Below are positions 30,150-52,285 of a stretch of DNA of 52,784 nt, one piece after another. The DNA is taken from the NCBI GenBank assembly GCA_030637655.1, contig DAOWGI010000094.1, positions 1-52,784 of the forward strand, in the 5' to 3' direction. Each line of letters begins with the position of its first letter. Within the stretch, counting starts at the first letter, position 1. The stretch is from a candidate division FCPU426 bacterium. Its GTDB lineage: Bacteria > Oederibacteriota > JAAXVQ01 > JAUVAV01. The notes beneath the pieces are model-generated. The model worked only from the letters and a program-made list of their open reading frames with translations. It ran no database searches and was not told the origin of the DNA. Both the position numbers and the translations under genes were made by a program.

Positions 30150-30182
30150 ATCCTTTATTTATTAATCCTTTCTTGATCTGAT

Positions 30183-30308: not shown

Positions 30309-30314
30309 GTATTG

Positions 30315-30998: not shown

Positions 30999-31000
30999 AC

Positions 31001-31915: not shown

Positions 31916-31943
31916 TTTTAAACCCCTTATGCTTACAACATTT

Positions 31944-32297: not shown

Positions 32298-32315
32298 TTT
32301 ATTTCTCCACTACTG

Positions 32316-33884: not shown

Positions 33885-33909
33885 GATTATCACCCTCCTT
33901 TTTTTAATT

Positions 33910-34128: not shown

Positions 34129-34139
34129 TTTCACCACCT

Positions 34140-34307
34140 CCTAACCCGGACAAGCCGGAACTAAGATATTTGACAGGATTAACAAGATATACGGGATTTT
34201 AAATAAATTCTGTCAATCCTGTTATCCTGTCAAAAAAAATTCTTTGCGCTCTTTACGGCGAATGATTTTCAGCCATAAAAAGCACGAATTTGAGAACTAA
34301 GATACTA
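34140..34307 (+). mobile_element. Second copy of the CCTAACCCGGACAAGCCGGAA...TAAGATACTA element, with a different internal hairpin
   Basis: Ends shared with 14854-15018; internal TGACAGGATTAACAAGAT...AATCCTGTTATCCTGTCA. Confidence 0.65.
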
Positions 34308-34311
34308 TTAG

Positions 34312-35199: not shown

Positions 35200-35204
35200 T
35201 TTAT

Positions 35205-35567
35205 CTATACCCAGTGCCCTTCTTGGTTGGCTTGACCGGCATTGCTCAGCTGCCCTGCCTGAAATTTATCAACCGCCTGTTTTACCGAACCTTTTTCGCA
35301 AAGATATATTTTAATATCAGCAGCTTTCAGCGCGGCATATGCCTTAGGACCCACATTGCCTGTAATCACCGCTTCCACGTTCAGATCCACAACATTTTTC
35401 GCAGCTTGTATCCCCGCTCCTTGCATGGCATTCAAATTTTGAGTGTTGTCATGAACTGTGAATTGCCCGGTATCGCTATCAATGACTAAAAAATATTTCG
35501 CTCTGCCAAAACGAGGATCCATCTCACTATCCAAACTCATTCCTTGTGAGGAAACAGCAATTTTCAT
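35205..35567 (-). CDS. NifB/NifX family protein (orange-protein-like)
   Basis: MKIAVSS, DPRFGRA, GAGIQAA, TGNVGPKA, C-terminal GHW. Confidence 0.9.
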   Translation of the reverse strand: MKIAVSSQGMSLDSEMDPRFGRAKYFLVIDSDTGQFTVHDNTQNLNAMQGAGIQAAKNVVDLNVEAVITGNVGPKAYAALKAADIKIYLCEKGSVKQAVDKFQAGQLSNAGQANQEGHWV

Positions 35568-35592
35568 ACGTTTAAACCTCCCCTTATATTCA

Positions 35593-35976
35593 TCATATCC
35601 GGTTTTGACCATGTTTCCCTTGAAACCGTCTGCGTCTTCCACAACAGCCAGGCATTAAAAACCGCTTTTCATCCAATTTTCCTGTTATAAATGCCTGAAG
35701 CACTTCTTCTACTTGTCCGCAAATCCTCGGAACAACCTGAATTCCTGAAGCAAGCAACATTTCTTCATATAACCGGGAAATTGCTCCGCAGATAAGCACT
35801 TCCACTTTCAATTCAATAATGCTGCCTGCTTTGCCAATAAGACTGGTTTCCGGTATAGTTGTCTCATAGCGGTTAAGCTCCTGATTACATTCGATATCGA
35901 TGATTAAAAACCGCCTGGAGACATCAAATACCGGCGCTAGTCTATTTTCCCATATTGAAATAGCTAGTTTCATCAT
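35593..35976 (-). CDS. NifB/NifX family protein
   Basis: RLAPVFD, LICGAIS, FLMPGC. Confidence 0.88.
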   Translation of the reverse strand: MMKLAISIWENRLAPVFDVSRRFLIIDIECNQELNRYETTIPETSLIGKAGSIIELKVEVLICGAISRLYEEMLLASGIQVVPRICGQVEEVLQAFITGKLDEKRFLMPGCCGRRRRFQGKHGQNRI

Positions 35977-35988
35977 ATTATTATTTAA

Positions 35989-36005
35989 AGCAAGAAAAAT
36001 GCCAA
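35989..36005 (-). promoter_or_regulatory. Sigma-54 (-24/-12) promoter of the orp-like operon
   Basis: Minus strand TTGGCATTTTTCTTGCT with exact GG-N10-GC spacing, just upstream of the first gene. Confidence 0.85.
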
Positions 36006-36125: not shown

Positions 36126-37502
36126 CTATTTTTTATTCCGGTTCCGGCCGTCTTCATCCATCACTTTGATTTTCAAAGACTTAATCTTGCGAAAAAGAGT
36201 GCTGGGATTGATGCCCAGATCTTTAGCCGCGGCCACACGATTACCATGATGTCGCCTAACAGCATCAGCAATATAGTACGCCTCCATAGCTTGTAAAGAT
36301 AAGCTCTTTTTACCTGGCCAGGTCCCAGGCTTTTCTTGCGCGCGGAGAACAGGCGGCAAATATCGGGGTTCAATTAATCCTCCGCGGCAAAGCACGTACG
36401 CATGCTCGATAATGTTCTCCAACTCACGAATATTGCCCGGATATTCATATTCCATTAATATGGCCATAGCCTCCTGGGATACACCCTGAATATCCTTATT
36501 CTTAAGACGATTAAATTTGGAAATAAAGTTATCTATTAAAAGAGGAATATCTTCTCTTCGCTCTTGTAAGTCCGGCAATTTAATCCGGAAGACATTTATC
36601 CTATAAAACAAATCATCCCTGAAAATACCTTGTTTAACCAATTGGCTAAGTTCTTTATTCGTGGCGGCAACCAGCCGAACATCCAGCTTGATTGGTTTAT
36701 TTGATCCCAAGGGTTCAAACACCTTCTCCTGGATAACACGCAGCAGCTTGGCCTGCATGGCTGGTGAAACATCACCGATTTCATCCAAAAATACTGTTCC
36801 GCCCTCAGCTATGGCAAACCGCCCGGACTTATCGCGACGCGCGTCCGTAAAAGCGCCTGCCTTATACCCAAACAATTCGGACTCCAGTAGGGAATCCGGC
36901 AAAGCTCCGCAATTAATCGGCACAAACGGTTTATCCCGGCGCGAGGAAAGATTATGAATAGCCCTGGCAAATATTTCCTTACCAGTGCCACTTGCTCCTT
37001 CTAAAAGGATGGTACTGTCACTCCGGGCTATTTCAGGTAATATCTCAAAAAGCTGCTGCATGCTCTGACTGCGGCCGACAATATCGGCAAATGTATATTT
37101 ATCCTGCAATTCTTTACGAAGCTGTTCAACAATACTCAGATCCCGAAAAGTTTCCACGCCTCCTATAAGATTATTCTGATTGTCTTTCAGTATAGCCGTG
37201 GAAATACTTATAGACAGACGTTGCCCGTTTGCATTAATAATATAAATGGTTTGATTGATTATCGGACGACCGGTCCGCATGGTTTTTTTTAAAGCGCAGG
37301 CATTTTCACAGATATTGGAACGAAATACATCACAGCATTTTCGTCCTATAGCTTCATCACGCTTTACACCGGTTATTTCTTCAGCCGCCCGGTTAAAAGA
37401 AGTTATTTCCCAATCCTTATTAACCGTAAAAACACCATCCGCGACGGAGTTTAAAATAACGTCAGTAGCTGACCGCGCTTCATTATTTAAATTATTTTTC
37501 AT
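36126..37502 (-). CDS. PAS-domain sigma-54-dependent Fis-family activator (OrpR-like)
   Basis: PAS with Cys cluster (CC....C...C), GASGTGKE, GAFTDA, FLDEIGD, YPGNIRELEN, HTH. Confidence 0.93.
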   Translation of the reverse strand: MKNNLNNEARSATDVILNSVADGVFTVNKDWEITSFNRAAEEITGVKRDEAIGRKCCDVFRSNICENACALKKTMRTGRPIINQTIYIINANGQRLSISISTAILKDNQNNLIGGVETFRDLSIVEQLRKELQDKYTFADIVGRSQSMQQLFEILPEIARSDSTILLEGASGTGKEIFARAIHNLSSRRDKPFVPINCGALPDSLLESELFGYKAGAFTDARRDKSGRFAIAEGGTVFLDEIGDVSPAMQAKLLRVIQEKVFEPLGSNKPIKLDVRLVAATNKELSQLVKQGIFRDDLFYRINVFRIKLPDLQERREDIPLLIDNFISKFNRLKNKDIQGVSQEAMAILMEYEYPGNIRELENIIEHAYVLCRGGLIEPRYLPPVLRAQEKPGTWPGKKSLSLQAMEAYYIADAVRRHHGNRVAAAKDLGINPSTLFRKIKSLKIKVMDEDGRNRNKK

Positions 37503-39196: not shown

Positions 39197-39883
39197 TCAA
39201 CACCTCTGCTTGTGTTTGGGCAAGAGATAACTCAGGGTAATCATCCAGTCGGAATTAGTAAAATACAAACCCGGAAATCTGTGGCCAGGCCGAAAATCAT
39301 GATGAAGATGTTCATTTAAAACCAGGGCAAACTTCCCGGTTTCCCAGGGGGCTAATACAGAAAAGGCGGAAAAAGAAAAACGTTTTTTAATAATCGGATA
39401 CAGGAGTTTGAAGACACTTTCTTTGGCGCAAAAAACCAATTTTTCCATCTGCGGGCGTCGTTCCCCCATTTTGGAAAGCCAGTTCATTTCATCCGCATTG
39501 GCAATAACCGCCATGGCTTCCGGACTAATTCTACGGGCTTGCGCTTCAATATCCAGCCCCAATGAAATAAATTTCTTATGCGCAGCCACTGCCGCGCAAT
39601 ACGCACCGCGAGTATGCGTAATGCTACCGCACACGCCATACGGCCACAGAGGTTCATCCTCTTGACCCCGCAACACCGGCTGGGCAGGAAGCTCCAATGC
39701 GGCCATGGCCTGACGCGCGCACCAGCGCCCGGTAGCAAACTCCTGCTGCCGTTGCTCACAAGCTGTTGCGATTGTTTTTTTTTCTTCCGGAAATAAAATA
39801 CTCGTGGTTTGCAGATCCTGGGTCCCTACAAAGTGAATCTCTCTTTCACTCAGCAGTTGGGCTAGATAGGGGAAAAAACTCAT
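39197..39883 (-). CDS. 4'-phosphopantetheinyl transferase (EntD/Sfp type)
   Basis: R..EF..GR.CA, P.WP.G..GSITH, GLDIE, FCAKES.FK. Confidence 0.92.
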   Translation of the reverse strand: MSFFPYLAQLLSEREIHFVGTQDLQTTSILFPEEKKTIATACEQRQQEFATGRWCARQAMAALELPAQPVLRGQEDEPLWPYGVCGSITHTRGAYCAAVAAHKKFISLGLDIEAQARRISPEAMAVIANADEMNWLSKMGERRPQMEKLVFCAKESVFKLLYPIIKKRFSFSAFSVLAPWETGKFALVLNEHLHHDFRPGHRFPGLYFTNSDWMITLSYLLPKHKQRC

Positions 39884-39886
39884 GCC

Positions 39887-40414
39887 TCAGTCCAAAAAGC
39901 AGACTTCACTGATAGCCACACTACATACTTTCCCGGCACACAGCACTTGGCCCACTACGGTTCCGAAATAGGTTTCATGTTCCAGTTTCTTGGCAATCAC
40001 CTGAACTTCTTTATCAGGACCAATGGGTTCCAAAAAGTGGGCGCCTAATATTTTAGTGGCTCTAACTTGGATGGGAGTTGCATTCTCTTGCACCACACTA
40101 CTCCGGTGAGTAAGAAAATGATATAAGCAGAGACCCAGCTGTCCGATCATTTCCAGTTGCAGAGAACCGGGATACACCGGCAGATCAGGAAAATGTCCCT
40201 GAAAAACCGGGTCCTGCGCAGATACTATACGCGATCCGAGAATAATTCCCTGCTCCAGATCCAGTCCTATGAGCTGATCCAGCAGTAAAAAGGGGTCACG
40301 ATGGGGTATGAGCTTTTTAATGTGTGTTTGGGAATAAACCAGGGACTCCGGTAAGGTTTCCAGGGTGGCAATCGCTTTTTTCCGGAAACCTTTTAGGATT
40401 TTCTCATATTCCAT
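39887..40414 (-). CDS. FabZ-like 3-hydroxyacyl-ACP dehydratase
   Basis: IPHRDPFLLLD and FQGHFP..PVYPG..QLE. Confidence 0.88.
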   Translation of the reverse strand: MEYEKILKGFRKKAIATLETLPESLVYSQTHIKKLIPHRDPFLLLDQLIGLDLEQGIILGSRIVSAQDPVFQGHFPDLPVYPGSLQLEMIGQLGLCLYHFLTHRSSVVQENATPIQVRATKILGAHFLEPIGPDKEVQVIAKKLEHETYFGTVVGQVLCAGKVCSVAISEVCFLD

Positions 40415-40419
40415 ACCGG

Positions 40420-41673
40420 CTATTTCAGCCCTTTCACAATAACATCTTCAATGATATTGCAGGCCTTATCCATCTCTTCCTTGGTCAATTGCGAAGACAC
40501 GGAAATCCGGAATCGCCGGGAATGGGCCGGCACAGCCGGAAAATCAACCGGCTGTAAGAACAAACCCCGTTTCTGAATCTCTGTAGCCATCTGAAATAAC
40601 TTTTCACCGGAAGAACCGATGATAATCGGTATGACCTGTGATTCTGTTTTACCCAAATCCAATTTTAGGTCCAAGAGATTTTTCTTAAGATAGGCTGTAT
40701 TCTCCCAGAGTTTGTCTCGCAGGCTTGAATCGCGAGTAGCCACTTCCAGGGATTTAAGCAAAGCTCCTACCATAACCGGCGATGGCGCGCAGGAAAAATG
40801 AAAGGGTGAAGAATAACATTTCATATAGCGAATCAAGCGGGCATTGGAGCAGACAAAACCGCCGACCACACCAAAGGATTTGCTGAAGGTGCCAAAGGAA
40901 ACTCCCATTTTGTCTTCCAAACCAAAGTGCTCAGCCACACCTTTACCATTGGGACCGAACATCAGAGTGGAATGTGCCTCATCAATATAAATAGCGGCCT
41001 GGTACTGATGACATAGTTCCAGGACTTCCGGCAGTTTCACCAGATCCCCGTCCATGGAATACACGCCTTCCACAGCCACCAAAGTACGTTTGCCTTTGCT
41101 CTTTTCGAGCATCTGGGCCAAGGAATCCATATCATTGTGCTGAAAAAAAAGCATCTTAGCGCCGGACAAGGTTCCGCCATCCACCAGGCTTTTATGACAT
41201 TTTTCATCCAGAATGAAAAAATCGCCTTTGCGCAAAATTCCCTGAATAGCTCCCATATTACCGGCCAGACCATTGGAGAACAACAAACAATCTTCCTGTT
41301 CTTTGAACTCCGCCAGTTTTTTTGCCAGCTTGATATGCAAATCAAAGGTGCCGGACAAGAGCGGCGCTCCAGAAGCGCCGGTACCGTATTTATCCAATGC
41401 TTCGTGAGCTGCCTGGATTACCTCAGGATGCGATGACAAACCAAGATAATTGTAGGATGTAAGGTTGATCATCTTTCTCTTTTGCTGATCCAGATTACTT
41501 TTAATTTCCGTGGTTGTACGAGGCATACACAGCAATTGCTGTTCAAAAAAGCTGAAGCAATAATTAATTCTCGGATTTTGCAGCCAGGCTTCAAAATCTT
41601 CCGGCGGTGCCAATACATCCGGATTATCATTGTACTGAAAATCCGCCAAGCTATAGTTTAAAATTTCGTCCAT
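40420..41673 (-). CDS. PLP-dependent alpha-oxoamine synthase (serine palmitoyltransferase-like)
   Basis: SYNYLGL, GASGAPLLSGT, H.SLVDG, EGVYSMDGD, DEAHS, GTFSKSFG (PLP lysine). Confidence 0.88.
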   Translation of the reverse strand: MDEILNYSLADFQYNDNPDVLAPPEDFEAWLQNPRINYCFSFFEQQLLCMPRTTTEIKSNLDQQKRKMINLTSYNYLGLSSHPEVIQAAHEALDKYGTGASGAPLLSGTFDLHIKLAKKLAEFKEQEDCLLFSNGLAGNMGAIQGILRKGDFFILDEKCHKSLVDGGTLSGAKMLFFQHNDMDSLAQMLEKSKGKRTLVAVEGVYSMDGDLVKLPEVLELCHQYQAAIYIDEAHSTLMFGPNGKGVAEHFGLEDKMGVSFGTFSKSFGVVGGFVCSNARLIRYMKCYSSPFHFSCAPSPVMVGALLKSLEVATRDSSLRDKLWENTAYLKKNLLDLKLDLGKTESQVIPIIIGSSGEKLFQMATEIQKRGLFLQPVDFPAVPAHSRRFRISVSSQLTKEEMDKACNIIEDVIVKGLK

Positions 41674-41692
41674 ACCTTCACCTTATAATAAT

Positions 41693-41789
41693 AGTAGGGG
41701 CGGGTTTTCAACCGAAGGAAATCCCATTCGTAGGGAACGGTCGCGACCGTTCCCTACATGCATTCCGATCGGGGAAACCCACCCCTACA
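41693..41789. repeat. Nested REP: GTAGGGGCGGGTTT...AAACCCACCCCTAC interrupted by a module carrying the GTAGGGAACGGTCGCGACCGTTCCCTAC REP
   Basis: Direct reading; the inner module is the reverse complement of that in 43761-43855. Confidence 0.8.
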
Positions 41790-41810
41790 AGATAATCATT
41801 TGAATTCTTT

Positions 41811-42068
41811 TTATTGGTTTGCTTCAGCCGACATGTTGGCTAAAAATTTGTCCGCCAATTCATCAATAGTTTTAATGTCTGCCAACTCTGAGCGGGGAAT
41901 CTTGATTTTCAGCTCACGCATAGAGCAGGAAACCACCTCAATGATATCCAAACTGTTGGCGCCGTAATCTTTCATCGATTTTTGCGGATCAATGTCTGAA
42001 TCCTGTAAATCTTCGAGATTTTCCAGAATATATTTCTTAACTACTGCGTAAATTTGTTCCTTGTCCAT
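41811..42068 (-). CDS. Acyl carrier protein, AcpK-like (beta-branch donor type)
   Basis: GANSLD attachment site and LKIKIPRSEL motif shared with AcpK-type donor ACPs. Confidence 0.9.
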   Translation of the reverse strand: MDKEQIYAVVKKYILENLEDLQDSDIDPQKSMKDYGANSLDIIEVVSCSMRELKIKIPRSELADIKTIDELADKFLANMSAEANQ

Positions 42069-42106
42069 TCATTTCTCCTTTTTAATATACCTAAGGGTAA
42101 TGTTTT

Positions 42107-42910
42107 TTATGATTTTTGTTTAGAAAAATATCGCATCATAAGATTATCTCGAAAAGGCATGCCTTTGTCTACAGTAATTATTTGTCCATTCATGGCATCC
42201 AACAATCCGCTGCAAAGCGCCAATACCGCTTTTCCGCACTCAGTGGGAGTCAGCACCATCTCTTCAGGAATACCCTGCTCCTTGATAAAAGTAAAAAACT
42301 CCTCACCAAAGATCTTGGCAAAGGAATCGGTCTTCACGGTTCCAAAACGGATAACATTGACCCGGCTTCCCTCGGCAAACAGATGCACAGAAAGATATTT
42401 TGAGAAAAACTCCAGCAAGGCCTTGGACGCTGCCACAAAATCATAACCCGGATAAAAATGGTCCGGTCCATCACTGGAAATACCGATCACATAGCCGGGA
42501 TAACTGCCAAAAAGCGCTTTGATTTTACGGGTATACTCAATCATGGGCCAAGTGCTGTATTCCAGGGTTTTAAAGAGGGACTTTTTCTTGTACTCATCCA
42601 GAGTCATAGTCCGCTGGGCGAATCCCACATTGCTGATAAAAACATCCACCTTTTTCTCTTGTTTGGCAATAGCAGCCAACAACTGGTCTGTGTCTTCAGC
42701 TTGAGAGACATCTGCTTCCAGGAGCACGGGCTTTTCCGCGGAAAGCGCGGTAAACCGGGCATTTAACTGATCCATATCCGCTGAGCCCCACTTGTAGGTT
42801 AGATACAGACGCGCGCCGGCCTGGGCAAATTGCAGAGCTGTGGCTAAGCCGATTCCCTGGGTACCCCCGGTGATTAAAACCACCTTGTCTTTCATATCAA
42901 TCGGAAACAT
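42107..42910 (-). CDS. SDR enoyl-ACP reductase (FabL/FabI-like)
   Basis: TGGTQGIG Rossmann motif; YDFVAASK (Yx6K) enoyl-reductase signature. Confidence 0.8.
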   Translation of the reverse strand: MFPIDMKDKVVLITGGTQGIGLATALQFAQAGARLYLTYKWGSADMDQLNARFTALSAEKPVLLEADVSQAEDTDQLLAAIAKQEKKVDVFISNVGFAQRTMTLDEYKKKSLFKTLEYSTWPMIEYTRKIKALFGSYPGYVIGISSDGPDHFYPGYDFVAASKALLEFFSKYLSVHLFAEGSRVNVIRFGTVKTDSFAKIFGEEFFTFIKEQGIPEEMVLTPTECGKAVLALCSGLLDAMNGQIITVDKGMPFRDNLMMRYFSKQKS

Positions 42911-42926
42911 TATCTATCCTTTTCTG

Positions 42927-42987
42927 GTGGGCGCGGTAACCGCGCCCCTACTTCCCGCCAAACGGGCGCACTCAGTGCGCCCCTACA
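42927..42987. repeat. Pair of GTAG-type REP palindromes
   Basis: GGGCGCGGTAACCGCGCCCCTAC and GGGCGCACTCAGTGCGCCCCTAC. Confidence 0.75.
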
Positions 42988-42994
42988 ATATTTT

Positions 42995-43744
42995 CTATTT
43001 ACCGTAATGTTCCTCAATGGTTTTCCGGGTTTCCGGAAAGCCAAAGCTCAGACGATGCATAAAGTCCTCCTGCACCCGGGCCGTAATCAACTGTTGCTTC
43101 TTTTTCGCGCTTAAGGCATGCTTCAAAAGACTGATGGATTTTACACTTTTTTCACTAATTTGCAAGGCAATATTTTCAGCCTTGGCCGGCACCTCGGCTT
43201 TAGGCACAATATAATTGATCTGTATGCCCTTTTCAGCCAGTTCTTTGCCTTTGTAGCATTTTCCAGTATACATCATCTCATTGGCAATAAAAGGGCCGAC
43301 CAGGTTGGCCAACAACTCAGTACAGCCTATGCCCGGAGTAAATCCCATATTCATAAAAACCACACCGTAGCGGCTTTCCCTGGCAGCCACCACCATATCC
43401 GAACAGACTGCCATGATCAGGCCGCCACCCACAGCATGCCCTTCCATGGCTGCAATAATCGGAAAAGGAGTGTTCACTATTCTTTCCGAGATCAGGAGAT
43501 CTTTCACATGAATTTTGCCGTCGCATAAATCCATTAGGTTCTGCTTGTCAGCACCGCCTGAGAAAACATCCGGCAGCCCGGACAAAATACACACTTTAGG
43601 ATTATGCTCGTTTTCCAATTTATCCAACCCGGCAATAACCGCGTCTACAAAATCATCGGAAAAGGTATTCTTGTGTTCCTCATCCTGCATCCGCAAATGC
43701 GCGATGCCATTGTTCAGAACCTCAATTTTTACAATGTCTTTCAT
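42995..43744 (-). CDS. Enoyl-CoA hydratase-fold decarboxylase ECH2 (PksI-like)
   Basis: Start MKDIVK; MQDEEHKNTFS, AMEGHAVGGG, FM.MGFTPG.G, G..YKG.EL. Confidence 0.88.
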   Translation of the reverse strand: MKDIVKIEVLNNGIAHLRMQDEEHKNTFSDDFVDAVIAGLDKLENEHNPKVCILSGLPDVFSGGADKQNLMDLCDGKIHVKDLLISERIVNTPFPIIAAMEGHAVGGGLIMAVCSDMVVAARESRYGVVFMNMGFTPGIGCTELLANLVGPFIANEMMYTGKCYKGKELAEKGIQINYIVPKAEVPAKAENIALQISEKSVKSISLLKHALSAKKKQQLITARVQEDFMHRLSFGFPETRKTIEEHYGK

Positions 43745-43760
43745 ATTTTCTCCCTCAAAT

Positions 43761-43855
43761 TGTAGGGAACGGTCCCCCGACTGGAATGCATGTAGGGAAC
43801 GGTCGCGACCGTTCCCTACGAATGGGATTTCCTTCGGTCGCGACCGTTCCCTACA
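43761..43855. repeat. Nested REP (REP within REP), overlapping the ECH1 stop codon
   Basis: GTAGGGAACGGTC [CCCGACTGGAATGCAT-REP-GAATGGGATTTCCTTCGGTC] GCGACCGTTCCCTAC. Confidence 0.8.
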
Positions 43856-44657
43856 ACACCACCGGTTTTTCCGGTTTAAATTTTCCAAACCAGGAAGGCA
43901 CTTCTCCCTCGTTAAATGCGCGGATGGCCTTCATGACTTCCGGATTTTGAATCATGTTCAGTAATTTTTCTTTGGCCAACCGGCTGCCGGTCTCCATTTT
44001 TTCTCCGAACAGCACATTGGTAAAGCGCTTGGTTTCAGCCAAAGCCTGTGGCGAGGCCCGGAAAAATTTCTTAATCATTCCTTTAATCATCCTTTCCATG
44101 CTCTCGGCCGGAACCACTTCATCCACCAGGTTCAATTGTTTGGCTTCTTCAGCGTTCAACTGCTTGGCGGTGAGTACCAGGTATCTTAATTTTTGCGGAG
44201 GCAGACGCAGAGAATAAATAAACGGCATGACATTGGCGGGAATCAATCCCAAAATTACTTCAGTCATTTCAAAAGTCGATTGTTCTGTGGCCACGATCAC
44301 ATCACAAGCACCGGCCAAACCCACTCCACCGGCTTTGACCGCTCCCTGCACTACGGCAATGACCGGTTGCGGAGCAGTATAGATACTGGTTAACACCTCT
44401 ACATACAGATCCACTGTTTTTTTCGCTGTTGACTCATCTTGCTCCAATGTTTGCAGAGCTTGCAAGTCCATACCCAGGCAGAATGGATTACCTTGCGAAC
44501 GTAAGACAATGACACGTATCTGCTCATCACTAACAGCTGCTTGCAAGGCCTGCTGCAAAGCCGACAAACTTTCCATATTTAATACATTGCCGGATTGGAT
44601 ATGGGATAGTGTAATAACTGCAACTTGCGAGTCTGTGTAGTGTTCTACCAAAGCCAT
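43851..44657 (-). CDS. Enoyl-CoA hydratase ECH1 (PksH-like HMG-ACP dehydratase)
   Basis: FCLGMD, AGGVGL..ACD, E...GLIPA.V; directly downstream of the HMG synthase. Confidence 0.88.
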   Translation of the reverse strand: MALVEHYTDSQVAVITLSHIQSGNVLNMESLSALQQALQAAVSDEQIRVIVLRSQGNPFCLGMDLQALQTLEQDESTAKKTVDLYVEVLTSIYTAPQPVIAVVQGAVKAGGVGLAGACDVIVATEQSTFEMTEVILGLIPANVMPFIYSLRLPPQKLRYLVLTAKQLNAEEAKQLNLVDEVVPAESMERMIKGMIKKFFRASPQALAETKRFTNVLFGEKMETGSRLAKEKLLNMIQNPEVMKAIRAFNEGEVPSWFGKFKPEKPVVL

Positions 44658-44660
44658 GGC

Positions 44661-45890
44661 TCAACTCCACTCGTAAGTACGGTAAAAATCCTTCACTTCT
44701 TTTAATACCAAATAGTGTTTGCCGGCATAGTGTTGAGCATACCAATTGCCCAGCAGAGAAAAATCAGGTGTGATGTCCGCTTGCTCAATACTCAGTTCAC
44801 GGATATTCTCGATCTTTTCATACTCAGCAAAAGAGACCTCTTTTCTTTGATTCAAAGCCTCATCGATCTTTAAGTTTTCAATAATGGCCTTGGCTTCCGG
44901 ACAAACCAGCGCACTGTAAAACTCACCTATAGCACCGGAGCCATAGGAGAAAAATCCAATCCGGTCTCCAGCCTGTAAATCTTTGGCACTTTTTAGCAAG
45001 CCGCATAATCCGACAAAATTACTGGCTCCATAGGTACTTCCCACCCGCGCGGCATAGCGGAGCGAGGGTAACACTTTTTGCTCAAAACTTTCCTTGATTT
45101 CCGTTTTTTTTCGGGACCGGGTAATATTACACAATAGCCGATGCGCCTGAAATGCCATACCCGGAAAAGGCATATGATAAATATTGTATTTAAAATAGTT
45201 ATCAAAATCTACAGGTTGCTCCACAACTTCCTGATAATGATTGTACGCGCCTTCCAAAGCATCCATATAACTGTAAAGACTGACCTCATTGTTCCCGGAT
45301 TCGTGCTTGGCTGTGGGCCGGAAGGTATCGTAAATACTGGTGGTCCAAAAGCCTTTTTTCTCCAATTCATACTCAACAATTTTAGGATTTTCACTCACCA
45401 AGATAGCTGCTGCCACCCCACCCAGTACAAATTCATGATCTTTATTAAAATGTTTGCGGGAAAAGTCCGTAGCAATAACCAGCGCTTTTTTGCCGCGGTT
45501 CAGATCGGAAGCCAGCCAGTTGACGGCCGTATCCAGACCGGCCACTCCGCTATAACAGGCATGCTTGGTCTCATAATTACGGACATTAGGCGGCAATCCC
45601 AGTGCTTTGTGAATATTGGTACTGATGGGTTTTCCGAAGTCAACCGATCCTTCGGTACCCACAATCAGCATACCAATGTCTTGCTTGTCTTCATCGGTAA
45701 GTATGGCCTGGGCCGCATTAGCTCCCATGGTGACATTATCCTCGTACGGAGGATTCAAAGAACGCGTATTGATCAGATAATCACACACCACCTGATCCGG
45801 ATCTTTTCCGCGAGCTCGAGCCAGATCCGCCTGCTGCATGCACAACGAACAACCATAGATGTTTATTTTTTCAATACCGATTTTTTTCAT
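44661..45890 (-). CDS. HMG-ACP synthase (PksG-like)
   Basis: Start MKKIGIEK; TEGSVDFGK (Glu), KHACYSG (Cys), YHMPF (His), FSYGSG; the DFGK.IST..H pattern is of the PKS HCS clade. Confidence 0.92.
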   Translation of the reverse strand: MKKIGIEKINIYGCSLCMQQADLARARGKDPDQVVCDYLINTRSLNPPYEDNVTMGANAAQAILTDEDKQDIGMLIVGTEGSVDFGKPISTNIHKALGLPPNVRNYETKHACYSGVAGLDTAVNWLASDLNRGKKALVIATDFSRKHFNKDHEFVLGGVAAAILVSENPKIVEYELEKKGFWTTSIYDTFRPTAKHESGNNEVSLYSYMDALEGAYNHYQEVVEQPVDFDNYFKYNIYHMPFPGMAFQAHRLLCNITRSRKKTEIKESFEQKVLPSLRYAARVGSTYGASNFVGLCGLLKSAKDLQAGDRIGFFSYGSGAIGEFYSALVCPEAKAIIENLKIDEALNQRKEVSFAEYEKIENIRELSIEQADITPDFSLLGNWYAQHYAGKHYLVLKEVKDFYRTYEWS

Positions 45891-45912
45891 GGTTATTTCC
45901 TTCATATCCATC

Positions 45913-45940
45913 GTAGGGGCGAGGTTACCTCGCCCGCACA
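45913..45940. repeat. GTAG-type REP palindrome
   Basis: GTAGGGGCGAGGTTACCTCGCCCGCAC. Confidence 0.75.
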
Positions 45941-45948
45941 ATTATATT

Positions 45949-46689
45949 TTACGGTGCGTAGGTCAACCCGCCGCTCACCCGAATCACTTCGCCGTTAATA
46001 AAATTAGCTTCCTCGGAAATTAAAAAATTCGCCAAATTGGCAATATCTTCAGCTGAACCGACCTTTTTTATCGGACAATGCTGTAACCAAAATTTATGCA
46101 AACTGTCTACCAGATTGTCTTTAGTCATATCCGTAGGAACATATCCCACAGTCACCACATTGGCAGTTATCCCCTTGGCGCCGTACTCTTTGGCAAGGGT
46201 TTGTGTCATTCCAATCAGGCCTGCCTTACTGGCGGCATAATTCACTTGGCCGCTGCAGCCTGTCTGAGCCAAAGATGAGATGTTGATTATTTTTCCCTTG
46301 CGGTTGGAAATAAAATGCATAAGCAATGTTCGAATCACGTAAAATGGTCCGGTCAGATTGGTGGCAATCACCTCATCCCACTCTTCATTGCTCATTAAAA
46401 CAGCCGCATTATTTTTCACCACAGCCGCATTGTTGACCACAGCTTGAATTTCTTCAAACTCATCAATTATGGTCCCAATCACAGACTCGACCTGTTCTGT
46501 TTTTTTAACATCCAGTAGATATGCTTTGACTGTGCGTTCCGGACATGCTGCCGCAACTTGCGCTATGGTCTCTTGCGCCGCTTGTTCATTGTTCGCGTAG
46601 GTAAAAGCAACATTGTGACCGCCAGCTGCCAAACGCTGCACCATGGCACGACCTATACCTCGTGAACCGCCTGTAATCAGTACATTCAT
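45949..46689 (-). CDS. 3-oxoacyl-ACP reductase (FabG-like)
   Basis: TGGSRGIG, NNA, GQVNYAASK. Confidence 0.9.
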   Translation of the reverse strand: MNVLITGGSRGIGRAMVQRLAAGGHNVAFTYANNEQAAQETIAQVAAACPERTVKAYLLDVKKTEQVESVIGTIIDEFEEIQAVVNNAAVVKNNAAVLMSNEEWDEVIATNLTGPFYVIRTLLMHFISNRKGKIINISSLAQTGCSGQVNYAASKAGLIGMTQTLAKEYGAKGITANVVTVGYVPTDMTKDNLVDSLHKFWLQHCPIKKVGSAEDIANLANFLISEEANFINGEVIRVSGGLTYAP

Positions 46690-46692
46690 GGC

Positions 46693-47988
46693 TTACTCCT
46701 CGTATTTTTTATACAATGCACAGCAATTCAGACCACCAAAACCAAAGGAATTTTTCAACATATATTTAACCACATGATCCCGCGCTTGATTGGCACACAC
46801 GTCCAATGTTATCACAGGATCAATTTCAGCAATGTTTATGGTGGGATGTAATTTATTATTCTGCATTTGGATAATACCGCCAATGGTTTCTACAATCGGC
46901 GCTGACCAGCACACATGTCCCAGCATAGACTTGGGCGCGTTGATTTTCAAATGCTTAGGAGAGGCGCCAAACACTTCGATAATGGCCCGAATCTCTTCCA
47001 AATCACCCAGCTGTGTGCCGGTAGCGTGGCAGTTAATATAATCAATAGCCTCAGGTTGGAGCTGCGCTTCCTGGAGCAACGCCCGAATCAAATAAGCCTG
47101 ACTTTCCGAGGATGGCGCAGGCAGATGGTTGGCATTGGCATTGGCTTTCACACCGACCAATTCAGCGTAAATTTTAGCGCCGCGTTTCTTGGCGGTTTCC
47201 AAATCTTCCAGGATCATAGTACCTGTGCCGTGCGCTGGAATAAAACCACAGCGTTTGGTATCAAAGGGCCGCGAGGCAGCTTCCGGATTGTCCTGGTACT
47301 CGGGTTTAACCACCACAGAATCCAAAAATGCCATGGCATGAATATCCGCCGCCGTCATATTAAAAATAGCTCCACAGATCACCGAACGATCACAATCCCC
47401 GGAAAGAATATCACGCCTGCCATCACGCAAGGCAATATTACCGCTCGCGCAGGCAGCGCCCAGAGTAAAGGTCGGACCGCGTAATCCTAATATTTCCGAA
47501 ACTGTTGCCGCAATATTCGAATCCAGGGCTTCCACGCCAAACAGCGGTTCAATGTACAGCGGTTCTTCTTCAAATTGTTCTGTGTTTTTCGTGATGTATT
47601 GCGAATTAAAATTATGTCCGCCCACCAGAACACTGGTACGAAAAGGATCACCGGTTTTCCCAAACAGCTCCGCATCCGCATAGGCTTGCAGAGCGCACAA
47701 AAGATTCATCTTGTTGGAAAAGGTGGCATTTTTAAATATTTTTCTGGTTTTTTTAAATATTTCCGGAGGCAGCTTAGCGCTTAAGCGCTCCAAGGCCGCT
47801 TTACAATCATAATCCCCCAGATCACCGCCTATTTTACACTCTACTTGTGACATGTCCAGAGAGGTCCAGCGTTTGATCCCGGACTTGCCCTGGATCAAAT
47901 TGGCATAGTATTCCTCCAAGGTGTCTCCCAGTGGATTAATGGTGGCCATACCTGTAATCACAACGCGTTTATTTGCTTTCTGATTCAT
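46693..47988 (-). CDS. Ketosynthase, PksF-like context but with active-site Cys retained
   Basis: FTLGAACASG, NCHATGT, KSMLGH, NSFGFGG. Confidence 0.88.
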   Translation of the reverse strand: MNQKANKRVVITGMATINPLGDTLEEYYANLIQGKSGIKRWTSLDMSQVECKIGGDLGDYDCKAALERLSAKLPPEIFKKTRKIFKNATFSNKMNLLCALQAYADAELFGKTGDPFRTSVLVGGHNFNSQYITKNTEQFEEEPLYIEPLFGVEALDSNIAATVSEILGLRGPTFTLGAACASGNIALRDGRRDILSGDCDRSVICGAIFNMTAADIHAMAFLDSVVVKPEYQDNPEAASRPFDTKRCGFIPAHGTGTMILEDLETAKKRGAKIYAELVGVKANANANHLPAPSSESQAYLIRALLQEAQLQPEAIDYINCHATGTQLGDLEEIRAIIEVFGASPKHLKINAPKSMLGHVCWSAPIVETIGGIIQMQNNKLHPTINIAEIDPVITLDVCANQARDHVVKYMLKNSFGFGGLNCCALYKKYEE

Positions 47989-48005
47989 AAGTTATATTCG
48001 TATCC

Positions 48006-49274
48006 TTAGTTTTTATACTTCGCAATTACCAGCGAGGCGTTCTGACCGCCAAAACCAAAACTATTGGATAAAAATGTGTTCACTTCAGCTTCCATAGCTT
48101 TATTTCCGACAACCTTGATCAAAATCTCCGGATCTTTCTCAAATTGATTAATGGTCGGATGCACCACACTCTTTTCCAGAGCCAAAATACCGGCAATAGC
48201 TTCAGTCCCGCCGCCGGCGCCCACCAAATGGCCGATCATGGATTTAGTGCTATGCACTAAGAGTTTATCCACCTGACCCGCAAACACTCTACATATTGCC
48301 CGGCTCTCGGATAAATCACCCAAAGTAGTTGAGGTTCCATGCGCGTTAATCAGATCGATCTCATCTTTGTTCACTCCCGCACTTTCTAAAGCCAGTTCCA
48401 TGGCCGCGCAAGCGCCCCGGCCTTCCGGATGCGGCGCTACCATGTCATACGCGTCACACGAAAAACCCCAGCCTTTTAATTCCCCGTATATTTTCGCGCC
48501 ACGCTGTTTGGCATGTTCCAGCGCTTCCAAACAGAGAATGCCGGCTCCTTCACCGAGCACAAATCCATCCCGATCTTTATCAAAAGGACGGCTGGCTGTT
48601 TCCGGCGAATCATTTCGTTCGGACAAAGCCTGGATATTCCCAAACCCCCCAAATCCCATTATATTCACTACAGCTTCCGCGCCACCGGCCAACATGGCAT
48701 CAGCCATGCCCATTTTAATCATCATGGCAGCTACTCCAATGCTGTGATTACCGGTAGCACAGGCTGAGTTCAGGGAAAAATTAGGCCCTTGCAAATTTAA
48801 CTCTATGGCTGTATAGGCAGACGCGGTACTGGGTATACAACCAATCACATAAAAAGGAGAGATGGTCTCCATGCCGCGTTCCACCGTATGTTTTATATTC
48901 CTAAATTGGGTCTCAATACCCGCGTCACCGGTTCCAATCAAGACGCCATATCGTCGAGGCGCTTTTTCAACTTCCAAACCCGAATTTTTAAAGGCCTGAA
49001 CCGCGGCAATGTGCCCCAGAACCGTATACCGGTCCAGACGCTTTACCATCTTCTTTTTTGGAAAATACTCTGCTATGTCCGGCAAATCAACTTCTGCCCC
49101 GATTTTCACAGGATAGCCAGTTAAGTCCGTATGCTGCGCCAAGCGGACTCCGGATTTTCCTGCCCTAAGATTATCCCAAAATTCGTCCACCGTATTTCCG
49201 ATGGGATTTATAGTTCCCATTCCGGTAATCACCACGCGCGTTTCCAAAGGATTGTGTTTGATATTCAAATTCAA
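48006..49274 (-). CDS. fabF: Beta-ketoacyl-ACP synthase II (FabF-like)
   Basis: SACATG, SRPFDKDRDGFVLGEG, NAHGTST, KSMIGH, NSFGFGG. Confidence 0.9.
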   Translation of the reverse strand: MNLNIKHNPLETRVVITGMGTINPIGNTVDEFWDNLRAGKSGVRLAQHTDLTGYPVKIGAEVDLPDIAEYFPKKKMVKRLDRYTVLGHIAAVQAFKNSGLEVEKAPRRYGVLIGTGDAGIETQFRNIKHTVERGMETISPFYVIGCIPSTASAYTAIELNLQGPNFSLNSACATGNHSIGVAAMMIKMGMADAMLAGGAEAVVNIMGFGGFGNIQALSERNDSPETASRPFDKDRDGFVLGEGAGILCLEALEHAKQRGAKIYGELKGWGFSCDAYDMVAPHPEGRGACAAMELALESAGVNKDEIDLINAHGTSTTLGDLSESRAICRVFAGQVDKLLVHSTKSMIGHLVGAGGGTEAIAGILALEKSVVHPTINQFEKDPEILIKVVGNKAMEAEVNTFLSNSFGFGGQNASLVIAKYKN

Positions 49275-49380
49275 GAGTTCCTTTTCGAGATTTTATTTTT
49301 AAAGGCGTTAATTATATATGAAAATTAGATATCTTCAAGTTAAAGTATAAATTATTTTCATTGTTTTTCATGATAATTAT

Positions 49381-49619
49381 TATTATTGTCCAAATTAAAA
49401 ATCAGCAACCACGGATGAACACTGATTAACACGGATTTTAAAAGCTGTTTCAGCATATTTACTGTTTTGCGTTTTTTAGACCTTATCAGTGTTTATCCGC
49501 CGGTCCTGGGATTCCTATTATTTAATATAGAGAGCAGGATGTTCATCTGTGGTTATTTAGGTTTTTAAAGGGTTTAATTGATTGATTTTTTATATTTTCT
49601 ATTTATTTGGACAGCAATG
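49381..49619. mobile_element. IS4-family-derived MITE with internal hairpin repeat
   Basis: Ends TATTATTGTCCAAAT / ATTTGGACAGCAATG; flanking 9-bp GATAATTAT / GACAATTAT; a solo end CATTGCTGTCCAAAT also lies near 16825. Confidence 0.6.
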
Positions 49620-49763
49620 GACAATTATGTATTTTTTAAGTAATTTTCTATTTTAACTGAGAAAATTTCCTAATTTAACTTATATCAATTTAGCAGTTCA
49701 GACACAATTTCAATAAAAATCACTTGCTAATTTTTTATATTAAACATTATTATATTTATAGAC

Positions 49764-50723
49764 ATGATAAAATATTCCAACTATGAGGTTTTACCAATGA
49801 ACAAATTATCTTCACCCAGACTTATGCTCATCACCACTATGTTGGGATTCCTATTGGTCACTTTTTTTCTTTGGGCGGATGAACTTTTTGATCTTCCGGC
49901 CTTAGTCCTCGGCGCAAACAAAACACCCGTAAATATAGCCGAAAGCCTCTTCGAATCACTCATTGTTCTGATGATCGCTGCCTTGACCGGAATATTTATA
50001 TTGTTTTTAGAGAAAAAAATCACCAAATTGAATGAAGAAAAAGCAAAAATCCTTTCCATTATTTCCCATGATTTAAATAATGCTTTTGTCGGTCTGCTGG
50101 GAAACACCAATTTGCTGCATGCCAAAGCGACTCAATTTGAACCCGATAAAATCGGCGAAATATCACTGGACATCAACCATTCCGCAAAACAGGTATCCGT
50201 CCTGCTGGCGAATTTACTCCAGTGGTCTAAACTGAACACAGGAATAATTCAGGCACATCCGGAAAACGCGGGATTACTGCCCCTGATTTCTCAAAACATC
50301 AAGTTACTGCATACCCCTGCCGCACTAAAAAAAATAACCATCACGCATCATATCGAAAACAGCATCTATGTTCGCGCAGATAAACCTATGCTCAATTCCA
50401 TTATTCAAAACTTATTAAACAATGCGATCAAATTCACACCTTCACAGGGGCGTATTCAGATCGAAAGCGTAACCGACCAAAACACCATTCATTTATATAT
50501 TTCCGATACCGGCATCGGCATGTCTGAAAATGAAATAAAAAACATCTTTAGTCTCAAGCTGGGAAATACCCGGCGTGGTACTGCCGGAGAAAAAGGAACC
50601 GGGCTGGGGCTTAGTATTTGCAAACAATTTATCGAGGCAAATCACGGCAGTCTGTCCATCCAGAGCCAACCCGGCCGGGGAACAAAAATCCGCATTGCCT
50701 TGCCCAGTGGTTCCGCGGTATAA
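49764..50723 (+). CDS. Membrane sensor histidine kinase (orphan)
   Basis: Two TM helices; SHDL H-box, NLLNNAIKFT N-box, DTGIG, GTGLGL; start may be 49797. Confidence 0.92.
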   Translation: MIKYSNYEVLPMNKLSSPRLMLITTMLGFLLVTFFLWADELFDLPALVLGANKTPVNIAESLFESLIVLMIAALTGIFILFLEKKITKLNEEKAKILSIISHDLNNAFVGLLGNTNLLHAKATQFEPDKIGEISLDINHSAKQVSVLLANLLQWSKLNTGIIQAHPENAGLLPLISQNIKLLHTPAALKKITITHHIENSIYVRADKPMLNSIIQNLLNNAIKFTPSQGRIQIESVTDQNTIHLYISDTGIGMSENEIKNIFSLKLGNTRRGTAGEKGTGLGLSICKQFIEANHGSLSIQSQPGRGTKIRIALPSGSAV

Positions 50724-50885: not shown

Positions 50886-51064
50886 CGATTATATTTCACC
50901 ATGCGGGGTAAACAGCAGCTAACATGGGTGTAAACAAAATTGTTGCAAGTTTTTTTAAAAAATTATAAGTTTATTTAAGATGCAAGCTGTAAATGTTCCT
51001 TTTTCGTTTAAATGAATGGCCTGACTTCGCGGCCCGCGGTTTAAAAAAACAGGAGGAAAAACCG

Positions 51065-52285
51065 ATGCGGATATTACAGAAAATTTCATTACTTCTATTG
51101 GGGTGTTTAGCGATGACAGTTTTTACTGACAATGTGTTTGCTGAAGTTGGAGACGATTCTGACCTGAACACGGTTGTGGAGGGGAATTCCGCATTCGCGC
51201 TTGATCTTTATTCCAAATTGGGAAAGAAGCAAGGCAATCTTTTCTTCTCGCCCTACTCGATCTCAACGGCACTGGGCATGGTCTATGGGGGAGCCCGGGG
51301 AAATACCGAAAAACAAATGGCCGAGGTGCTCCATTTTACTTTAGCTCAAAAACAGTTTCATCCCGCATTTGCTCGGCTCGAAGCCCGATTAAATGCTGAC
51401 CAAAAGAGTGAAGACATTGACTTAAATATTGCGAATGCGCTGTGGATTCAGAAAGACTATAGTATACTCAAAAACTTTCTCGATTTGCTTAAGACGAACT
51501 ACCAAGCCGGACCAAGACCGGTAGACTTCATACGCGCTCCTGAAGACGCGCGCAAGAAGATTAATGCCTGGGTGGAGGAGGCAACCAAAGCCAAGATCAA
51601 GGACCTGATAAAAGCGGGGGTTCTTGGTCCCATGATTCGGCTGGTCTTGGTCAACGCGATTTATTTCAAAGGAAATTGGAGCAGTCGGTTTGAAAAGAGA
51701 CTCACGCAAGCTGCTCCCTTTCGTATGGAATCCGGAAAGACGGTAAGCGTGCCAATGATGACCAAGACCTTCCGGTTCGCATATGGTGAGAGTGATAATC
51801 TGCAGCTCCTGGAATTGGCTTATGGGAAAGGCGATTTTTCCATGATCGTGTTACTCCCCAAGAGGGATGAGGGACTGGACGAACTGGAAAAAAAAATGAG
51901 TGTAAAAAACTTAAAAATCTGGCTGAACACTCTCAAAGAAAGGGAGGTTGCGGTATTTTTGCCAAGATTTAAGCTGACCTCTGAATTCGGTCTGGATAAA
52001 ACGCTGGCTGCGATGGGCATGCCTACTGCTTTTCGGGAGGCCGATTTTTCCGGCATAGATGGTACCAAAAAGTTGGAGATTTCTGCTATCCTGCACAAAG
52101 CCTTTATCGATGTGAATGAAGAAGGAACAGAGGCGGCCGCCGCCACATCCGTAATGGTGGGAATCACGTCGGTCCGGCCCTCACCTCCGGTTTTCCGCGC
52201 CGATCATCCCTTTATATTCTTGATTCGCGAGAATCGTTCGGGAAGCATTCTATTCCTGGGAAGAATTGTTAATCCAAAAACATAG
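51065..52285 (+). CDS. Secreted serpin (serine protease inhibitor)
   Basis: Start MRILQK after AGGAGG; NLFFSPYSI, NAIYFKG.W, hinge EEGTEAAAAT, FRADHPF.FLI. Confidence 0.95.
   Translation: MRILQKISLLLLGCLAMTVFTDNVFAEVGDDSDLNTVVEGNSAFALDLYSKLGKKQGNLFFSPYSISTALGMVYGGARGNTEKQMAEVLHFTLAQKQFHPAFARLEARLNADQKSEDIDLNIANALWIQKDYSILKNFLDLLKTNYQAGPRPVDFIRAPEDARKKINAWVEEATKAKIKDLIKAGVLGPMIRLVLVNAIYFKGNWSSRFEKRLTQAAPFRMESGKTVSVPMMTKTFRFAYGESDNLQLLELAYGKGDFSMIVLLPKRDEGLDELEKKMSVKNLKIWLNTLKEREVAVFLPRFKLTSEFGLDKTLAAMGMPTAFREADFSGIDGTKKLEISAILHKAFIDVNEEGTEAAAATSVMVGITSVRPSPPVFRADHPFIFLIRENRSGSILFLGRIVNPKT

Follow-up and report, generated by a model that had tools for sequence, protein, structure and literature searches.

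A polyketide-type β-branching cassette combined with a type II fatty acid synthase and a serine palmitoyltransferase-like enzyme in uncultured bacteria: a candidate route to branched sphingoid-type lipids

What does a β-branching cassette do in a genome in which no modular polyketide synthase (PKS) can be found? The question is raised by an operon in a candidate division FCPU426 bacterium (GenBank assembly GCA_030637655.1), on contig DAOWGI010000094.1, the whole 52,784 nucleotides (nt) of which were analyzed and are referred to here as the window. Cassettes of this kind have been described as accessories of modular PKSs and consist of five proteins, namely, a ketosynthase (KS), a 3-hydroxy-3-methylglutaryl (HMG)-acyl carrier protein (ACP) synthase (HCS), a dehydratase, a decarboxylase, and an ACP that stands alone (PMC7501309). 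In the window, all five component types are embedded among the genes of a dissociated, type II fatty acid synthase (FAS-II), together with a pyridoxal phosphate (PLP)-dependent α-oxoamine synthase (AOS) whose nearest relatives appear to be serine palmitoyltransferases (SPTs). The answer proposed here, to which we give about an even chance, is that the operon specifies a self-sufficient type II assembly line that would build a methyl-branched acyl-ACP from an isovaleryl starter, to be released by the AOS as a 2-amino-3-keto lipid of the sphingoid type.

Composition and conservation of the operon

The operon is formed by eleven open reading frames (ORFs), all on the minus strand and tightly packed between positions 39197 and 49274, with gaps of 3 to 137 nt (Table 1). 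Profile searches against Pfam and NCBIfam assigned these ORFs to the gene families of a FAS-II, a β-branching cassette, and an AOS, bearing out, in position and co-orientation as well as family, the eleven-gene list of an initial annotation made from the sequence alone. The KS, ketoreductase, dehydratase, candidate enoyl reductase, and ACP are all encoded as separate proteins, the elongation set of a type II synthase. The parts of an HCS cassette are likewise all present: an ACP-type HMG synthase with its catalytic triad, a pair of crotonase-fold enzymes (ECH1 and ECH2), and a free-standing donor ACP.

Table 1. Positions of the operon genes and of the palindromic elements between them
Feature	Position	Strand	Basis of assignment or remarks
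FabF-type β-ketoacyl-ACP synthase II, predicted elongating KS	48006-49274	-	TIGR03150, 506.4 bits, above the cut-off of 493.75; Pfam KS N- and C-terminal domains
Second ketosynthase (KS2)	46693-47988	-	Best NCBIfam model PRK07103 (PksF-type), 333.7 bits, below the cut-off of 445
FabG-like 3-oxoacyl-ACP reductase	45949-46689	-	TIGR01830, 246.8 bits, below the cut-off of 297.75; adh_short_C2, 193.6 bits
HMG-ACP synthase (HCS), PKS β-branching type	44661-45890	-	ORF as listed extends to 45941
ECH1, crotonase-fold, predicted dehydratase	43851-44657	-	ECH_1, 153 bits; role from position in cassette
ECH2, PksI/CurF-type, predicted decarboxylase	42995-43744	-	PRK07110, 260 bits, above the cut-off of 215; ORF as listed extends to 43888
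Yx6K short-chain dehydrogenase/reductase (SDR; YDFVAASK), tentatively proposed enoyl-ACP reductase	42107-42910	-	Best NCBIfam model FabL, 108 bits, far below the cut-off of 328
Dedicated AcpK-like ACP, 85 amino acids (aa)	41811-42068	-	PP-binding, 38 bits; best NCBIfam model PRK07117, 65.4 bits, below the cut-off of 79
α-Oxoamine synthase (PLP), proposed chain-releasing enzyme	40420-41673	-	Nearest serine palmitoyltransferases; own clade
FabZ-like 3-hydroxyacyl-ACP dehydratase with N-terminal extension	39887-40414	-	FabA domain, 55 bits; FabZ models, 70.5 and 67.6 bits, below cut-offs
Sfp-type 4'-phosphopantetheinyl transferase (PPTase)	39197-39883	-	4PPT_N, 87.9 bits; ACPS, 54.7 bits
Repetitive extragenic palindromic (REP)-like element	41711-41774	.	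ACP-AOS spacer; GTAGGG...CCCTAC hairpin
Further REP-like palindromes	43775-43855, 42929-42986, 45913-45939	.	Intergenic spacers inside the operon (four spacers in total)

The catalytic Glu, Cys, and His of the HMG synthase are intact, as initially annotated, in the motifs GTEGS, HACYSG, and YHMPF; across 62 homologues, the commonest versions of these three motifs account for 35, 41, and 32 sequences, respectively, and the variants listed keep the three residues. The best relatives of solved structure are the PKS enzymes CurD (270 bits) and PksG (234 bits). HMG-coenzyme A (CoA) synthases score at most 208 bits, a value reached by the 420-aa HMG-CoA synthase of PDB entry 5hwo, which we take to be MvaS of Myxococcus xanthus, and the protein falls below the cut-off of the bacterial HMG-CoA synthase model (277.8 versus 360.35 bits). 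Among PDB entries, ECH2 matches the ECH2 domain of CurF best (140 bits), with PksI close behind (138 bits). Because the HCS is nearest to CurD and PksG and the ECH2 to CurF and PksI, the cassette is of PKS type by ancestry. It nevertheless appears to work in a PKS-free setting. The cluster ACP is 33% identical to the ACP encoded beside the bacillaene HCS of Bacillus velezensis over 81 aligned positions, nearly its full length.

The two KSs were compared with their homologues in related loci. In FabF, the catalytic Cys and first His are present in 38 of 38 sequences and the second His in 37, with a gap in the remaining one; in KS2, the Cys-His-His triad is intact in all 53 homologues. The thiomarinol plasmid cassette has its KS gene between those for the ACP and HCS, and this KS bears Ser where the catalytic Cys would be; the replacement, for which that single cassette served as the standard of a decarboxylating KS, does not occur in KS2. 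Because it retains the Cys, unlike the thiomarinol enzyme, KS2 is probably a true condensing enzyme and not merely a decarboxylase. Neither the cluster nor the ORF families that recur in the related loci yielded a FabH-like gene. Since KS2 keeps its triad where a FabH is missing, it would be the supplier of acetyl-ACP and the first condensing enzyme, with FabF as the elongating one. That real elongation takes place is argued by FabF itself, which passes an equivalog cut-off and accompanies 34 of the 40 loci that contain the full core described below (co-oriented in 5, divergent at the tail in 29).

Conservation of the operon was examined at two distances. Strong matches to the HMG synthase (75 to 79% identity) were detected in 7 of 60 related genomes; three weak matches resemble other thiolase-fold enzymes. 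In all six relatives that were fetched, the eleven genes occur in identical order, with one PPTase cut by a contig end, and none of ten flanking proteins from the window was matched beside the cluster in these six genomes. Thus, with synteny inside the operon and unrelated flanks, the eleven genes behave as one portable unit, an arrangement far beyond chance adjacency. The wider scan, restricted to one genome per species, yielded 80 loci from other genomes. The HMG synthase is at least 54% identical in 64 of these, and 46 of the 64 also encode the AOS. Of the 18 loci that lack it, 15 lie on contigs that stop less than 3.3 kb beyond the HMG synthase and hence before the position of the AOS; in one other (L077) the AOS is in two pieces, and in two (L043 and L080) it is truly absent. 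A nine-gene core, KS2-FabG-HMG synthase-ECH1-ECH2-enoyl reductase-ACP-AOS-dehydratase, is complete in 40 of the 80 loci, mostly in metagenome-assembled genomes (MAGs) of Spirochaetota, and a PPTase homologous to that of the window accompanies 9 of these 40. By submitter label, the 46 AOS-bearing loci belong to Spirochaetota, at one rank or another (36), Aminicenantes (4), Chlamydiae (1), Chloroflexota (1), and unclassified bacteria (4). A Polyangia MAG (L079) carries the same gene set in another order, and FabD is added in 18 other loci. Throughout the homologous loci the catalytic motifs are retained, including the Yx6K motif of the SDR (39 of 39 homologues) and, in the variants listed among 33 homologues, the HFP...PG...E motif of the dehydratase.

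A reduced variant was observed in a Spirochaetia MAG (L080, positions 9643 to 13033), where a small ORF, an HMG synthase (58% identity), ECH1, ECH2, and a second small ORF occur without KS, FabG, enoyl reductase, or AOS and adjoin huge GLUG/cadherin surface proteins. A 2309-aa neighbor in this locus, considered as a possible PKS, proved to be such a GLUG/cadherin surface protein.

A PKS partner was sought in the window, in the host genome, and in other cluster-bearing genomes. The window encodes no modular PKS or nonribosomal peptide synthetase, as the initial annotation had stated, since its longest ORF is that of a 1038-aa AcrB-type pump. The host assembly (3.28 Mb in 120 contigs, rated 91.6% complete; the window is contig C64) contains seven KS matches, all in frames of 403 to 432 aa. 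Four carrier proteins were identified in it, namely, AcpP, an Aas-like AMP-ligase-ACP-PlsC fusion, the ACP of a KS/chain length factor (CLF) cluster on contig C108, and the cluster ACP; none lies inside a PKS, and no PKS acceptor ACP domain was found in the host genome. In five cluster-bearing relatives, two of which have genomes rated 100% complete in 7 to 8 contigs, the largest frame among 32 KS matches is 811 aa. In four of the five additional cluster-bearing genomes, which represent other lineages, the KS frames do not exceed 539 aa; the exception is an Aminicenantes MAG (G063, the genome of locus L028), with KS-bearing frames of 1529 and 2982 aa on contigs C75 and C45, away from the cluster. 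Thus, neither the host nor 9 of the 10 other cluster-bearing genomes showed a modular PKS. Conversely, the HMG synthase homologues that do lie beside PKS ORFs of 900 to 2600 aa, in cyanobacteria and actinobacteria, are at most 50% identical to that of the operon and are not accompanied by an AOS. The cassette therefore appears to work without a modular PKS, in line with the initial proposal that it acts on a dissociated FAS-II, which a trans-acyltransferase (trans-AT) PKS elsewhere in the genome would have contradicted.

The carrier protein on contig C108 belongs to a further stand-alone, non-modular acyl-chain system of the host. Two separate pairs of KS and CLF-like genes are located there (16664 to 19453 and 30576 to 34531; L099 and L100), one with an ACP and a PEP-utilizing enzyme, the other with a PlsC-type acyltransferase and an SDR.

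A separate clade of α-oxoamine synthases

The AOS was compared with the characterized branches of its family by profile scores, solved structures, and phylogeny. It scores below the NCBIfam cut-offs of the BioF/Kbl subfamily (345 versus 535 bits), bioF (331.6 versus 426.45), Kbl (322 versus 460), and CqsA-type (186.8 versus 428) models. Its best relative of solved structure is the SPT of Sphingobacterium multivorum (280.8 bits), against 233.6 bits for a BioF/Kbl-type enzyme, 214 bits for Kbl, and 109.6 bits for CqsA. A tree was constructed from twelve cluster AOSs and eight reference rows that were taken from annotated records and validated by NCBIfam, including a Prevotella SPT, a β-type SPT, two Kbl, one 5-aminolevulinate synthase (ALAS), one BioF, and the host BioF-like protein; the SPT controls clear the cut-offs of their models (Prevotella, 659.7 versus 640 bits; record L103, 599.9 versus 500 bits). 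The twelve cluster AOSs form one clade with support of 100/100 and a long stem (1.82), outside Kbl (100/99) and outside the group of BioF and ALAS. The host BioF-like protein groups with the BioF reference, away from the cluster AOS.

Record L103 is an observation in its own right. Its AOS, encoded at positions 755423 to 757236 of NZ_OL790696.1, passes the cut-off of the β-proteobacterial SPT model, which is unexpected for a 4.8-Mb sequence deposited as a "plasmid" of Escherichia coli; the gene is unannotated in the accompanying table.

Alignment of the AOS with the S. multivorum SPT, mapped by hand onto the residues named in the consulted portion of PMC10196870, indicates that the PLP-binding and catalytic residues among them are kept (His138, Ser185, Asp210, Ala212, His213, Thr241, Ser243, Lys244, and Ser273). 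By these comparisons, the AOS is SPT-like and belongs to a separate clade. The initial annotation had anticipated an enzyme other than a plain BioF or Kbl, which agrees with the scores and the tree. Its term "sphingoid-like" fares less evenly: SPTs do appear to be the nearest relatives, and the link to them is weakly supported, as discussed below.

Among 8000 scored candidates, 7506 match the AOS family at E ≤ 1e-30, a count that spans the AOS superfamily as a whole. Each of the 120 top-ranked clusters listed shares at least 71% identity with the AOS and carries an automatic name alone, BioF being a frequent one. Across the submitter labels of several phyla, the AOS is 62 to 84% identical, as expected for a constrained lipid function, and the ACP and AOS genes are neighbors in the core gene order.

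A candidate pathway and its competitors

In the proposed pathway (every step of which, like the branch position, chain length, amino acid, and membrane-lipid nature of the product, is deduced from the enzyme families), the Sfp-type PPTase would activate the dedicated AcpK-like ACP, and FabD, here the housekeeping copy, would load malonyl units. KS2 would decarboxylate malonyl-ACP to acetyl-ACP and then produce acetoacetyl-ACP. The CurD/PksG-type HMG synthase would add acetyl-ACP at the β-keto group to yield HMG-ACP, which ECH1 would dehydrate to 3-methylglutaconyl-ACP and ECH2 would decarboxylate to 3-methylcrotonyl-ACP; reduction by the Yx6K SDR would then give isovaleryl-ACP. This iso-starter would be elongated by FabF, FabG, the FabZ-like dehydratase, and the SDR. 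Finally, the SPT-like AOS would join the chain to an amino acid, for which serine is the leading guess, in a decarboxylative Claisen condensation and so release it. The product would be an iso-methyl-branched 2-amino-3-ketoalkane, that is, a long-chain base of the 3-ketosphinganine type. The dehydratase and the reductase are divergent and score below their cut-offs, and we therefore infer their roles.

Several observations weigh against this pathway. Those on the SPT link come first: the AOS reaches 336 bits on the CFB-type SPT model (cut-off, 640), 281 bits on the β-proteobacterial model (cut-off, 500), and 244 bits on the α-proteobacterial model (cut-off, 670); the grouping of the AOS clade with the two SPT references has weak support (81/76), in a tree with few references and several long branches; and, by the hand mapping onto the residues named in PMC10196870, four residues of the S. 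multivorum SPT that belong to the water network around the amino acid substrate are replaced (Asn52 to Tyr, Ala79 to Ser, Ser81 to Ala, and Met271 to His). Within the cassette, ECH1 appears generically similar to crotonases and not specifically PksH-like: its PDB matches are generic crotonases, with isohexenylglutaconyl-CoA hydratase at 96 bits and PksH at 84 bits, in rank 12. The assignment of the SDR as an enoyl reductase is weak, its PDB scores showing no separation between FabI (70.0 bits) and FabG (70.5 bits). No RNA run was listed among the sequencing runs that contain the operon locus. Furthermore, the operon contains no gene for a ketosphinganine reductase or a ceramide synthase, the other two enzymes of the bacterial sphingolipid pathway as the sections consulted of PMC11087976 describe it.

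An N-acylating partner might be encoded elsewhere. A 375-aa protein adjoins the cluster, at varying positions, in 19 of the 80 loci (for example, L028, 6687 to 7811); its predicted fold (pLDDT, 81) is that of a tandem-GNAT N-acyltransferase, with a glucosamine N-acetyltransferase as the best match, and a ceramide synthase-like role is possible. Its matches in the Atlas are unnamed GNAT clusters alone. This protein is treated as a lead because its gene is unlinked to the operon in the host (contig C106, 338 to 1459; L097) and because the family occurs in relatives with and without the cluster alike (38 of 61), two further points that do not favor the proposed pathway.

The sequence does not reveal at which stage the HCS acts or how long the chain becomes, and this also counts against the early-branching scheme. 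The HCS might act once on a longer β-ketoacyl-ACP, in mid-chain or in the last cycle, giving a 3-methylacyl-ACP and hence a base methylated near the head group (e.g., a 4-methyl base). The gene content is equally compatible with this outcome, the two condensing KSs could divide the work before and after the branch, and long intermediates are the usual substrates of PKS cassettes in the account of them given in the consulted part of PMC7501309. We nevertheless regard it as unlikely: in the absence of FabH, KS2 is most simply a primer, and the nearest solved HCS is CurD, the natural acceptor of which we take to be acetoacetyl-ACP. Moreover, we know of no bacterial long-chain base methylated near the head group.

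The product might instead be no membrane lipid at all. A short branched α-aminoketone, released from isovaleryl- or 5-methylhexanoyl-ACP, could serve as a diffusible signal akin to CAI-1 or LAI-1 or could dimerize into one, such as a pyrazine. Signals are indeed produced by AOS enzymes of the CqsA/LqsA type, the operon lies beside a histidine kinase-like gene and near a sigma-54 activator, and it is devoid of lipid-tailoring genes. However, the distance of the AOS from CqsA is large by both the structural comparison and the profile model, an equivalog-passing FabF together with FabG, a dehydratase, and an enoyl reductase would be excessive for one or two cycles, and the regulatory neighbors are not kept in the six relatives. 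A signaling product is therefore quite unlikely.

Very unlikely, in our estimate, is the iterative use of the cassette, in which the two KSs would alternate, one driving the reductive loop and the other the HCS loop, so that a multi-methyl, isoprenoid-like saturated chain would be assembled solely from acetate and released by the AOS as a phytanyl-like sphingoid base. Two KSs with Cys-His-His triads are conserved together, and a full reductive loop and a full HCS loop share one ACP, as this scheme would need. Programmed alternation is without evidence, however; a single HCS and a single ECH pair are present, and no precedent was found in the literature searched. If alternation were nevertheless true, the operon would represent a mimic of isoprenoid lipids by polyketide logic, widespread in uncultured anaerobic Spirochaetota and other sediment bacteria.

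The two weakest explanations are largely refuted. A role of the cassette as helper to a modular PKS located elsewhere, whether trans-AT or not, on the model of bacillaene and mupirocin biosynthesis, would fit the PKS type of the HCS and ECH2, the incompleteness of the host assembly, in which a PKS could be missing, and the long KS frames of the Aminicenantes MAG, yet it is most improbable given the short KS frames in the host and nearly all other cluster-bearing genomes, including two rated 100% complete, and the divergence of PKS-adjacent HCSs. A novel pimeloyl-ACP/8-amino-7-oxononanoate route to biotin, with the AOS as BioF, is suggested by the bioF score and by the frequent automatic naming of homologues as BioF, and it can practically be dismissed because contig C38 of the host carries a separate set of bioB, bioF-like (421 bits), and bioD genes, because the tree places that BioF-like protein, not the cluster AOS, with BioF, and because decarboxylation by ECH2 would strip the second carboxylate.

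Genomic surroundings, known systems, and implications

The genes around the operon, which encode, among others, a sigma-54 activator, Nitro_FeMo-Co, ParA-ferredoxin, DUF5320, and DsrE proteins, and a TonB receptor, suggest that the host is an anaerobe. Near-identical DNA was detected in cold-seep metagenomes from three studies, one of which is possibly the source, with at least a sixth of the sampled words matched. One closely related locus bears the submitter label Candidatus Firestonebacteria.

Several features of the window are of separate interest. A co-oriented block (28920 to 36000 and 36126 to 37502) of small Nitro_FeMo-Co-domain proteins, ParA/CbiA-ferredoxin fusions, DUF5320, and DsrE proteins, which also includes a DnaJ-domain protein, an ARMT1-like phosphatase, and a methyltransferase and adjoins a PAS/sigma-54 activator, resembles the metallocluster or redox gene sets of anaerobes. 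Immediately upstream of the operon, a full-length bacterial serpin is encoded at 50993 to 52285 (Pfam Serpin, 421 bits), adjoined by the histidine kinase-like ATPase gene (49764 to 50723); neither is kept beside the cluster in relatives. A sigma-54 promoter was sought upstream of the operon and rejected: the window has 26 matches where 28.5 would be expected, and the spacer at 49275 to 49763 has none. A sigma-70 scan returned a match of 10 of 12 positions at 49338 to 49311, to be read as a consensus match only.

The REP-like palindromes within the operon bear on gene boundaries. The 64-nt arms at 41711 to 41774 and 43775 to 43838 are 97% complementary, and the 28-mer core has 62 copies genome-wide (at most 4 substitutions). 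On account of these elements, the ORFs of the HMG synthase and ECH2 are falsely extended at the N terminus: because the N termini as listed cross the palindromes, and in agreement with the alignment of homologues, translation likely starts at 45890 and not 45941 for the HMG synthase and at 43744 and not 43888 for ECH2, the latter abolishing an apparent overlap of 38 nt. As hairpins in the transcript, they might affect mRNA stability or attenuation.

Comparison with known systems places the operon between several of them. It shares all five component types with the PksF/G/H/I-AcpK (bacillaene), CurB-F (curacin), thiomarinol, and mupirocin cassettes. It differs from these in lacking a modular PKS and its acceptor ACP domains, which are often in tandem, in the location of the cassette among FAS-II genes and an AOS, and, relative to thiomarinol, in the catalytic Cys of its KS; the HCS is 34 to 50% identical to PKS-linked ones. 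As in the initiation of bacterial sphingolipid synthesis by SPT, a PLP-dependent AOS is encoded beside an ACP, an adjacency shared with the SPT gene of Caulobacter. The operon differs from that system in that its AOS falls short of all SPT models and has several changed residues in the substrate pocket, and its chain would come from a private synthase and branching cassette, not from the fatty acid pool. The chemistry proposed here is the same as that of the alternative isovaleryl-CoA route of myxobacteria, in which MvaS, LiuC, AibA/B, and AibC convert acetoacetyl via HMG, 3-methylglutaconyl, and 3-methylcrotonyl to isovaleryl thioesters for iso-branched lipids. The myxobacterial route is CoA-bound and uses a decarboxylase of a different family, whereas the operon has an HCS and an ECH2 of the ACP-dependent PKS type, and its intermediates would be ACP-bound. 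CqsA and LqsA likewise belong to the AOS family and condense acyl thioesters with amino acids; they are much more distant from the operon AOS and have no linked synthase or branching cassette. A matching logic is seen in PfSgaAB of Pseudomonas fluorescens MYb115, where, according to the consulted portion of PMC12134224, an iterative type I PKS and an AOS produce sphinganines: there too, a dedicated chain-building synthase is coupled to an AOS, in that case one with SPT activity, outside the canonical SPT route. Unlike that type I megasynthase, the operon is fully dissociated and includes an HCS branching cassette.

All the enzyme families involved are known. The combination of an HCS cassette, a type II FAS, and an AOS, which the initial annotation had not recognized as a characterized cluster, is not described in the open-access papers and preprints searched. 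Nor do they describe such a combination as independent of a PKS, as provided with a KS that retains its Cys, or as widely conserved in uncultured anaerobes. A paper on Black Sea sphingolipids (PMC11334938) contains no occurrence of "Spirochaet," "Aminicenantes," or "polyketide."

Thus, an accessory of modular PKSs is found here, highly identical across at least 46 loci, as a fixed part of a free-standing type II synthase that ends in an SPT-like enzyme. For enzymology and engineering, it offers a compact, PKS-free β-branching system. If the isovaleryl-primed pathway is correct, the operon would provide a leucine-independent, ACP-bound route to iso-branched long-chain bases, geochemists could use its genes as a marker when tracing a branched amino-lipid in sediments, peat, and seeps, and a large group of uncultured anaerobes would join the producers of sphingolipid-like lipids.

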